A program made the position numbers. A stretch of 64,000 nucleotides of DNA from Escherichia coli. GTDB lineage: Bacteria > Pseudomonadota > Gammaproteobacteria > Enterobacterales > Enterobacteriaceae. Location: the NCBI RefSeq assembly GCF_017348835.2, contig NZ_CP071375.1. The stretch is one strand, 5' to 3'. Shown here piece after piece: positions 33,001-36,000 of this stretch. The first letter of the stretch is position 1. The number at the start of each line of letters is the position of its first letter.

Positions 33001-36000
33001 CCGTATAAGAATTTTTTACCTTAAAAATAGTTGTTGCACTGGCAGGACTGTTGCTGGGAGAAAGAGGTGAGCTGGTTTTTACCGTGTTAGGTGTGCTTTT
33101 GTGCTGTGAGGCAGTGAAGCTACTGTTACGCGTAACACTTGATATACTGCGAGGAATGCTGGAAAAAAAAGAATTAATGCTATTTATCATATAGATAACC
33201 TTATAAGAACTTTATGTGATAGTCTAATTTATCCGTTTGCATGAAATCTACCTTTTGTGAAATTCTCGTCAATATTTTACTCAAAATGATCGGCTGTAGG
33301 AATAAACTATTTGATATTATTGCGTTTTTAGAGTTGTTTTCAATCAGCTATAGATAGGGCTTGGCGCCAGAATGGAGAATATTTAACGAGAAATAGAAGC
33401 TTTGTATCAGACGGGCTTCCCTGAATAGAGAAGTTAAATAATCAGGATGATGCTAATGAATATCAGGAACAAGGTGAGTGTCTTCATGTTCACTGAAACA
33501 GGGTGTCACAAAAAATATGGCTATAAGATGATCAATGTGATTTGAAATATTTATAGGTTTACAGGGGGCTGGGCATGCATATCTTACTGCAATGCAGAAT
33601 ATGTGCTGCTTGGCGCAGCTCTTTATTGAGAATGTTCAATCTTTTGTTTCAGTTTCGTGAAGGATACGGACGGTTTCTTGTGTAATATTATACATCGCCT
33701 GTTTATCTTTACTGCATACTCCTGCAAGTGTTAATGCTACTCCAGCATAAATTTCTGGATAACTATGTGTAAATATATCCAGTGAGTTTACATGTTTCTC
33801 TTTCATTCCTGCATCACAACGAACCTTATTTATACCTGTCGCCATTGATTGGGGAGGGCTAGAGCCTTCTGCACGAAAATAGTGATGTGACAGATCTGAG
33901 ATAGCTTTGTATCCTTCTGCCTGGTTCAGGCCTGGAGCAGTCCATGTTTTACAAAAATACTCGGCAGCGTAACGTGTTGCAAGAGCGGCATCAGACGAGG
34001 AACCTGAGGTTCCGCTCATGACCGATAATCTCATCCGAATAAAAATATACCAATTGGTATACCAAGTTTATACCAAGAGCCAAAAAACAAAGGGGCTACC
34101 ATTTGGTAACCCCTTGATTATTTGGCGGAAGCGCAGAGATTCGAACTCTGGAACCCTTTCGGGTCGCCGGTTTTCAAGACCGGTGCCTTCAACCGCTCGG
34201 CCACACTTCCGGAATGACGCGCACTATAAACATCCCGATGCGGCGTGTAAACCCCTAATTTGTTTGTTTGCCTGAAAAACAGCCAAAAGTGCATTGATAG
34301 CGTGAAATAACAGCAGATTGATCATTTCATCACCATGAATTCCTTCTCTTTTACTCGTTTAGCAACTGGCTAAACATCCCCATCGCCCGGCCAAAGAAAA
34401 ATAGGTCCATTTTTATCGCTAAAAGATAAATCCACACAGTTTGTATTGTTTTGTGCAAAAGTTTCACTACGCTTTATTAACATTACTTTCTGGCGACGTG
34501 CGCCAGTGCAGAAGGATGAGCTTTCGTTTTCAGCATCTCACGTGAAGCGATGGTTTGCCTTGCTACAGGGACGTCGCTTGACGACCATGTGCGCCCGGTG
34601 TCCTGCCGGTGTTGCAAGGAGGAGAGACGTGCGATATGAATAACGAGGAAACATTTTACCAGGCCATGCGGCGTCAGGGCGTTACCCGGCGCAGCTTTCT
34701 CAAATATTGTAGTCTGGCTGCCACGTCGCTGGGATTAGGCGCGGGAATGGCACCAAAGATTGCCTGGGCGCTGGAGAACAAACCGCGCATTCCGGTGGTA
34801 TGGATCCACGGTCTGGAATGCACCTGCTGTACCGAATCTTTTATCCGCTCCGCTCACCCGCTGGCAAAGGACGTCATCCTTTCCCTGATTTCCCTCGATT
34901 ACGACGATACTTTGATGGCTGCCGCCGGAACCCAGGCGGAAGAAGTCTTTGAAGACATCATCGCGCAATACAATGGCAAATATATCCTCGCAGTAGAAGG
35001 TAATCCGCCGCTGGGCGAGCAGGGGATGTTCTGTATCAGCAGCGGTCGACCGTTTATTGAGAAACTCAAACGTGCCGCTGCCGGAGCCAGTGCGATTATC
35101 GCCTGGGGAACCTGCGCGTCCTGGGGCTGCGTGCAGGCCGCGCGACCTAATCCGACGCAGGCAACGCCTATCGACAAAGTCATCACCGACAAACCCATTA
35201 TCAAAGTACCTGGCTGCCCGCCGATCCCGGATGTGATGAGCGCCATCATTACTTACATGGTGACCTTTGATCGCTTGCCAGATGTCGACAGAATGGGTCG
35301 TCCACTGATGTTTTATGGTCAGCGTATCCACGATAAATGCTATCGCCGCGCTCACTTCGACGCCGGAGAGTTCGTCCAGAGTTGGGATGATGACGCTGCC
35401 CGCAAAGGTTATTGCCTGTACAAAATGGGCTGCAAAGGGCCTACCACCTATAACGCCTGTTCCTCCACACGCTGGAATGATGGCGTTTCTTTCCCAATCC
35501 AGTCTGGTCACGGCTGCCTGGGCTGTGCGGAAAATGGTTTCTGGGATCGCGGTTCGTTCTACAGCCGCGTGGTCGATATTCCGCAAATGGGTACTCATTC
35601 CACCGCCGATACCGTCGGTTTAACCGCGCTTGGCGTGGTGGCAGCGGCTGTTGGTGTGCACGCAGTCGCCAGCGCCGTTGACCAGCGCAGACGTCATAAC
35701 CAGCAACCTACAGAAACCGAACATCAGCCAGGCAATGAGGATAAACAGGCATGAGCACTCAGTACGAAACTCAGGGATACACCATCAATAATGCCGGACG
35801 CCGCCTGGTGGTCGACCCGATTACGCGCATTGAAGGCCACATGCGCTGCGAAGTGAATATTAACGATCAGAATGTGATCACCAATGCCGTCTCCTGCGGC
35901 ACCATGTTTCGCGGGCTGGAGATCATCCTGCAAGGGCGCGACCCGCGCGATGCGTGGGCGTTCGTTGAACGTATCTGCGGCGTCTGTACTGGCGTACACG

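Follow-up and report, generated by a model that had tools for sequence, protein, structure and literature searches.

What marks the end of a prophage at the tRNA gene serT when effector genes, rather than an integrase gene, lie beside the tRNA? The question is raised by a stretch of 64,000 nucleotides of Escherichia coli DNA (contig NZ_CP071375.1), the whole of which is called the window here and to which unqualified coordinates refer. Segment 34031-34210 of this window is very probably the attachment (att) site attR, composed of phage P arm, core and bacterial side, of a lambda-like prophage of the Sp4/CP-933M type integrated in serT.

Gene serT was an intact tRNA-Ser gene with anticodon UGA on the minus strand (34123-34210; ARAGORN and Rfam, 57.5 bits), identical in sequence to serT of E. 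coli K-12, and because of this strand its CCA end faces lower coordinates. Comparison with an unoccupied serT locus, suggested in an earlier note made from the sequence alone, was carried out with the bacterial site attB of K-12: identity to the window was exact from 34118 rightwards to at least 34260 (143 bp, the end of the compared stretch), and left of 34118 the K-12 sequence was unrelated, divergence beginning only 5 bp past the CCA end. In a set of 5,426 complete E. coli genomes searched with megablast, K-12-type genomes matched from ~34078-34081 rightwards only, over tRNA-Ser and hyaA, and the full 33300-35000 stretch was matched by only 472 genomes. These results agree with the earlier note, which had described a prophage-chromosome junction at an intact serT, with an AT-rich phage side, an effector end next to the tRNA and no integrase nearby. 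A phage arm lay to the left and K-12-identical sequence with hyaA to the right; G+C content was 0.387 at 33001-34000 against 0.49-0.57 right of the junction; and the genes to the left were J, lom, two tail-fibre genes, tccP2 and an espV remnant. No integrase was found within 8 kb left of the junction, and the right side was chromosomal backbone (hya, app, etk-gfc, csp and tor).

Related genomes provided the other prophage end. Strain SCPM-O-B-7615 carries a collinear prophage between serT and yccA, in the order hyaBA, serT, espV', tccP2', tail genes, exo, a DUF4224 xis-like gene, int, yccA and tusE, with a 65-bp core at both prophage ends, in direct orientation and 51.8 kb apart. The same core is carried by the yccA-int junction of PE164 (NZ_CP114128.1), the closest complete genome to the junction of the window. 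Aligned with this junction, the attR of the window shared an exact block of 65 bp (34118-34182), the longest exact match between attR and attL, which consists of the 60 nt at the 3' end of serT and the next 5 nt, and occurs once in the window. Such an exact repeat at the far end of related prophages was judged well beyond chance, and the direct repeat of the serT 3' segment anticipated by the earlier note at the other end was present there in the relatives (65 bp, including 60 nt of the tRNA). In front of the core at the int end stood a K-12-type serT terminator and yccA, and the K-12 locus was identical to the yccA-side junction going leftwards; to judge from these sequences, the int-end core with its K-12-type terminator is the displaced original 3' end of serT.

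An attP was predicted by joining the P arm and core of the window to the int-proximal arm of the PE164 yccA-int junction, and served as query for a search of 50,697 phage records. It was present in one uninterrupted piece, with 100% coverage and 93.9% identity, in Escherichia phage Evi (LR597642.1, 40 kb), whose genes and sites are ordered as tail fibre genes, espV remnant, repeats, a terminator-like hairpin, core, int, xis-like gene and exo. The 65-bp core was found in the Evi attP, in the K-12 attB and in both attL and attR of SCPM-O-B-7615, and the four-way alignment of attR, attP, attL and attB (Evi attP, K-12 attB) corresponded to the exact outcome of a single reciprocal crossover in the core. 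Among the complete genomes, attR (P arm and core) was detected in 748 of 5426 and attL (core and int-proximal arm) in 746 of 5426 (~14% each). Positions 23-176 of the attP query, covering parts of the P arm, hairpin and core, also had matches of 85-89% in other phage records (PPompW / Stx2a phages LC567818 etc., Salmonella phage S.Kent 1-2-1), some of these records being prophages named after the ompW site. A related att segment of the serT kind may therefore be in circulation among other lambdoid phages.

Where the integrase resides was answered by the same relatives. The cognate enzyme, 339 amino acids long and encoded outside the window, adjoins attL next to yccA, as was expected by the earlier note, which had placed the int end at the far boundary. 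It matched Pfam PF00589 with 33.5 bits (cut-off 27.1) and aligned end to end with lambda Int (1Z1B; E = 5.6e-20), from residue 1 of both proteins and including the N-terminal arm-binding domain. In attP, the order was hairpin, tRNA 3' fragment, arm and 3' end of int, with tRNA fragment and int on the same strand, and because the fragment points the same way as int, the integrase ends up far from the intact tRNA. In PE164, the serU prophage displayed the other arrangement: int comes directly after, and is convergent with, the intact tRNA gene, and the core, of 31 bp, falls in the T-arm and acceptor region. Both the serT and the serU arrangements fit the general rule of a regenerated tRNA gene and a displaced fragment (cf. 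PMC4383910).

The phage side of attR was a conserved P arm (34031-34117), unrelated to K-12 and near-identical among serT prophages with differing cargo: the espV/tccP2 carriers (window and O157:H7), the espK carrier B1_2, the effector-less ETEC1738 and phage Evi. Similarity starts at 34031 (B1_2) or 34042 (ETEC1738) and ends abruptly to the left, the break in espV coinciding with the start of this conserved arm. Three direct TATACCAA(G/T) repeats with 12- and 11-bp spacing and one inverted copy occupied 34046-34077 on the plus strand (repeat families D1 and I6), the inverted copy making a 16-bp palindrome TATACCAATTGGTATA. All four copies of TATACCAA in the window were located inside this interval, 1.13 being expected over the whole window, and the repeats were conserved across cargo types. 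In the int-proximal arm, TATACCAA was encountered once exactly (position 594 of the PE164 stretch with the yccA-int junction, L005) and once with one mismatch (position 550), in the same orientation. Since the repeats occur in both arms and the integrase has a lambda-like arm-binding N-domain, they are candidate arm-type Int sites. Together, the 87-bp arm and the 65-bp core could serve as a marker of serT occupancy, which amounts to ~14% of complete E. coli genomes.

From these components, a course of integration can be proposed. In the free phage, the attP core would be flanked by the surrogate hairpin and the TATACCAA repeats on one side, and by the 3' end of the lambda-Int-like int gene on the other. 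Recombination with the chromosomal serT would yield an intact serT, its 3' part and terminator coming from the phage, beside the tail-fibre/effector end (tccP2, espV'), and would push the original serT 3' fragment with its native terminator to the far end, beside int and yccA. The int gene would thereby remain on the yccA side, together with the displaced fragment, and the effector end would become the neighbour of the intact tRNA. In lysogens, serT is thus a hybrid of host and phage sequence, its terminator being supplied by the phage.

The hairpin (34090-34115, minus strand) was retrieved by terminator scan and folding, and is phage-borne and intrinsic-terminator-like: an 11-pair stem and a 4-nt loop, then TGTTTTTTGG. 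Six of the 11 pairs are G-C, the structure starts 8 nt past the CCA end and is followed by UGUUUUUUGG. As RNA it folded at -25.2 kcal/mol (z = -4.8), and none of 200 shuffles folded as well. The form of an intrinsic terminator, a G+C-rich hairpin with a U-run, was thus found directly downstream of serT. The hairpin aligned with the K-12 serT terminator, ~8 positions differing with pairing kept, and differences between alleles likewise left the stem in place, the window having one G-U pair and ETEC1738 a perfect stem. In relatives, the K-12-type hairpin was displaced to the far end, adjoining yccA. An imperfect palindrome mentioned in the earlier note corresponds to this structure; the palindrome was real, but had been placed about 8 bp too far left, aggggctacc lying at 34091-34100 and ggtaacccct at 34105-34114. 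Lying outside the identity block, it was rejected as a crossover site. The Rfam scan of the junction accepted the tRNA as its sole RNA, weak matches to sX4 and MicX, far below gathering scores, being dismissed.

On the simplest reading, the hairpin would be a replacement terminator supplied by the phage to the rebuilt serT and homologous to that of the host. It was unlikely, in our estimation, to be mainly a binding site for Int, Xis or integration host factor (IHF) instead of a terminator. That role is suggested by its location in the conserved P arm beside the repeats, and by its apex TACCATTTGGTA (34097-34108), which nearly repeats the arm palindrome TACCAATTGGTA (34048-34059), the host terminator having TAGCATTTAGCTA there. 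However, every feature of an intrinsic terminator is present on the tRNA strand, from the G+C-rich 11-pair stem to the T-run and the start 8 nt past the CCA, the hairpin is homologous in position and sequence to the host serT terminator, whose place it takes, and pairing is preserved by its allele differences. Binding and termination are moreover compatible with each other. A further function is equally doubtful: the hairpin might also control how int is expressed in the phage as well as in the prophage state, as a terminator or a sib-like element, its stem TACCA/TGGTA (host, TAGC/GCTA) perhaps being recognised by recombination proteins. The thought of a sib-like role arises because int and the tRNA fragment are co-oriented, which puts the hairpin immediately past int in the free phage; after integration, this position is occupied by the homologous hairpin of the host.

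Where phage DNA ends was the next point, and here the earlier note, which had the phage sequence abutting the CCA end of serT, was right about the gene and can be refined as to the position of the crossover. The identity block spans the 3' two-thirds of serT and stops at 34182, having entered the 5' strand of the anticodon stem by four bases; the symmetric anticodon stem-loop is therefore situated at the edge of the core. Because the block covers the 3' 60 nt of serT, the crossover between phage and host is placed somewhere inside serT and not at the CCA end, and everything left of 34118, hairpin included, is assigned to phage DNA. The right boundary of a common prophage with effector genes is thereby defined exactly, the phage DNA stopping within 34118-34182. 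By analogy, strand exchange most likely took place in the anticodon loop (34172-34178, minus strand), the candidate segment, crossovers in tRNA-gene integration reportedly falling in that loop as a rule.

The early divergence from K-12, 5 bp past the CCA end, might also be explained by a phage inserted intergenically just downstream of serT, with the whole tRNA chromosomal and the junction at the CCA end. This was considered very improbable, since the displaced far-end copy holds 60 nt of serT and the attP of phage Evi holds the same 60 nt; a crossover was therefore possible anywhere in the 65-bp core, whose end at the anticodon stem-loop is a usual place for it in tRNA-gene integration. Still less credible, to the point of being negligible, was a rearrangement or decay scar (inversion or deletion) that would account for the lack of a nearby integrase: inversions between prophages are known at this locus, PE164 joining this right end to the int end of its serU prophage, and espV is truncated at the phage end, but the relation of attB, attP, attL and attR is base-exact with a free phage genome included, 748 genomes have the same junction and 746 the corresponding attL junction, the order of the window is that of the un-inverted form, and the truncation of espV already exists in free phage Evi.

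Three points nevertheless weigh against an attR of this type in serT. The direct repeat was observed in related genomes, the far end of this prophage lying outside the window. We infer excision, the binding of Int, termination and the position of the crossover. In PE164, the linked far end is serU with a different integrase, through inversion, and a like rearrangement may conceivably have affected the source genome of the window. As to the latter, the best match to 1-12000 in the genomes searched was 99.6% identical, the first 30 kb of the window and the int-side prophage of PE164 shared 99.6% identity, the right part was 99.75-99.94% identical to its serT-side prophage, and 33300-35000 was 100% identical to its junction region, in a window that follows the un-inverted order. 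The source genome was most probably un-inverted, which would put attL ~19 kb upstream of position 1 of the window.

The PE164 genome displayed an inversion of ~1.15 Mb, arisen from recombination between its serT and serU prophages (extracts L001 13806-14973; L003; L005 1-1649; L012 3557-6001). The first of two hybrids has serU and int at one end and leads to tccP2, espV', serT and hya; the second starts with yccA, the serT fragment and int and leads to nleB2, nleC', nleH' and nleF, where a serU fragment of 31 nt and yodB follow. On account of this inversion between the two prophages, PE164 was rejected as a proxy for the left end of the prophage. Its inversion parts the att halves by >1 Mb, and a search for a repeat at the other prophage end can therefore fail regardless of the integration mechanism. 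In the PE164 prophage copies, the genes for portal, major capsid, tape measure and large terminase were annotated as frameshifted (L003 12704-14294, 16231-17260 and 20598-23176; L005 29728-31655), and copies of IS3 and IS481 broke these prophages as well. Such lysogens may be defective despite both att sites being intact.

The prophage is of a known type at a known site, with standard behaviour and nothing new, and its importance beyond correct annotation is slight. Gene tccP2 (ECs1126/Z1385) was located on prophage Sp4/CP-933M in reference PMC2884950, and serT has been listed among prophage integration sites in Shiga toxin-producing E. coli (STEC) and E. albertii (PMC8767318, PMC10673567). 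A literature search found no publication tying serT, yccA and prophage together. Prophages Sp4 (Sakai) and CP-933M (EDL933) of O157:H7 display the same right end, made of tail fibre genes, tccP2, an espV fragment, serT and hyaA, and the P arm, hairpin and core of the O157:H7 genome were near-identical to those of the window. The placement of this prophage type between yccA and serT-hya, with tccP2 at the tail-fibre end, was recovered here, the serT-hya side and tccP2 in the window and the yccA side in relatives. Differences concerned the espV remnant (393 bp in the window against 183 bp in O157:H7), tccP2, which is intact in the window (250 amino acids) and frameshifted in O157:H7 (PMC2884950), and the early region, which is mosaic among strains.

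Phage Evi has the same contiguous attP (espV remnant, TATACCAA repeats, hairpin, 65-bp core and int), but is a 40-kb free phage devoid of tccP2, and its 93.9% identity in the att region reflects differences located mostly in the int-proximal arm. Resemblance to lambda extends from the full-length alignment of Int, arm-binding N-domain included, to the layout: the 3' end of int next to attP, a small xis-like gene upstream, arm repeats spaced by 11-12 bp, and int at one prophage end with tail and accessory genes at the other. The core of lambda measures 15 bp and lies between gal and bio. The serT phage, in contrast, has a tRNA-gene target with a 65-bp identity block and a different arm motif (TATACCAA), and must supply the 3' end of the tRNA and a terminator. 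The Islander signature consists of a regenerated tRNA gene at one end, a co-oriented displaced 3' fragment at the other and a tyrosine integrase inside (PMC4383910; Hudson, Lau & Williams 2015). Its elements were all found, the intact serT in the window and the displaced 3' fragment with the tyrosine integrase in relatives; unlike in Islander-type elements, however, the integrase of serT prophages is situated at the fragment end, not next to the intact tRNA.

Several other features of the window deserve description. On the chromosomal side, a promoter-like site (TTTACA, 17-nt spacer, TATAGT) precedes serT at 34223-34251 on the minus strand; it is a consensus match only (10/12) and its sequence is identical to K-12. 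Further right, hyaA (34636-35754, plus strand) is the first gene of the hydrogenase-1 operon and belongs to the backbone, according to the annotations of PE164, K-12 and O157:H7. On the phage side, the remnant of espV (33636-34034, minus strand) lacks the N-terminal coding part and is annotated in PE164 as 'secretion protein EspV, incomplete, missing N-terminus'; a fragment was also present in O157:H7 and in phage Evi. Searches of Pfam and NCBIfam returned no family for the espV remnant or the xis-like protein.

The cargo gene tccP2 (32438-33190, minus strand) encodes a type III effector, Tir-cytoskeleton coupling protein 2. It was annotated at the same position in PE164 and O157:H7, and was an intact open reading frame here, with the EspF repeat of Pfam in four stretches (E = 2.4e-110). 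The protein of the window has four proline-rich repeats in its 250 amino acids, and that of PE164 reaches 297 amino acids through one more 141-bp repeat unit. In SCPM-O-B-7615, the gene is interrupted by insertion sequence (IS) elements.

Further into the prophage, the tail assembly genes and J have sodC (Cu/Zn superoxide dismutase) between them, on the opposite strand (~25700-26250; 25718-26245 of PE164 extract L003). This sodC looks like an accessory gene inserted in the tail module, and O157:H7 is arranged alike. Downstream of the Q antiterminator region, ARAGORN predicted a cluster of prophage tRNA genes at 3490-3739, namely Met (CAT), Arg (TCG) and Arg (TCT), the first of which is annotated as tRNA-Ile in PE164; such a cluster is typical of lambdoid prophages of enterohaemorrhagic E. 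coli.
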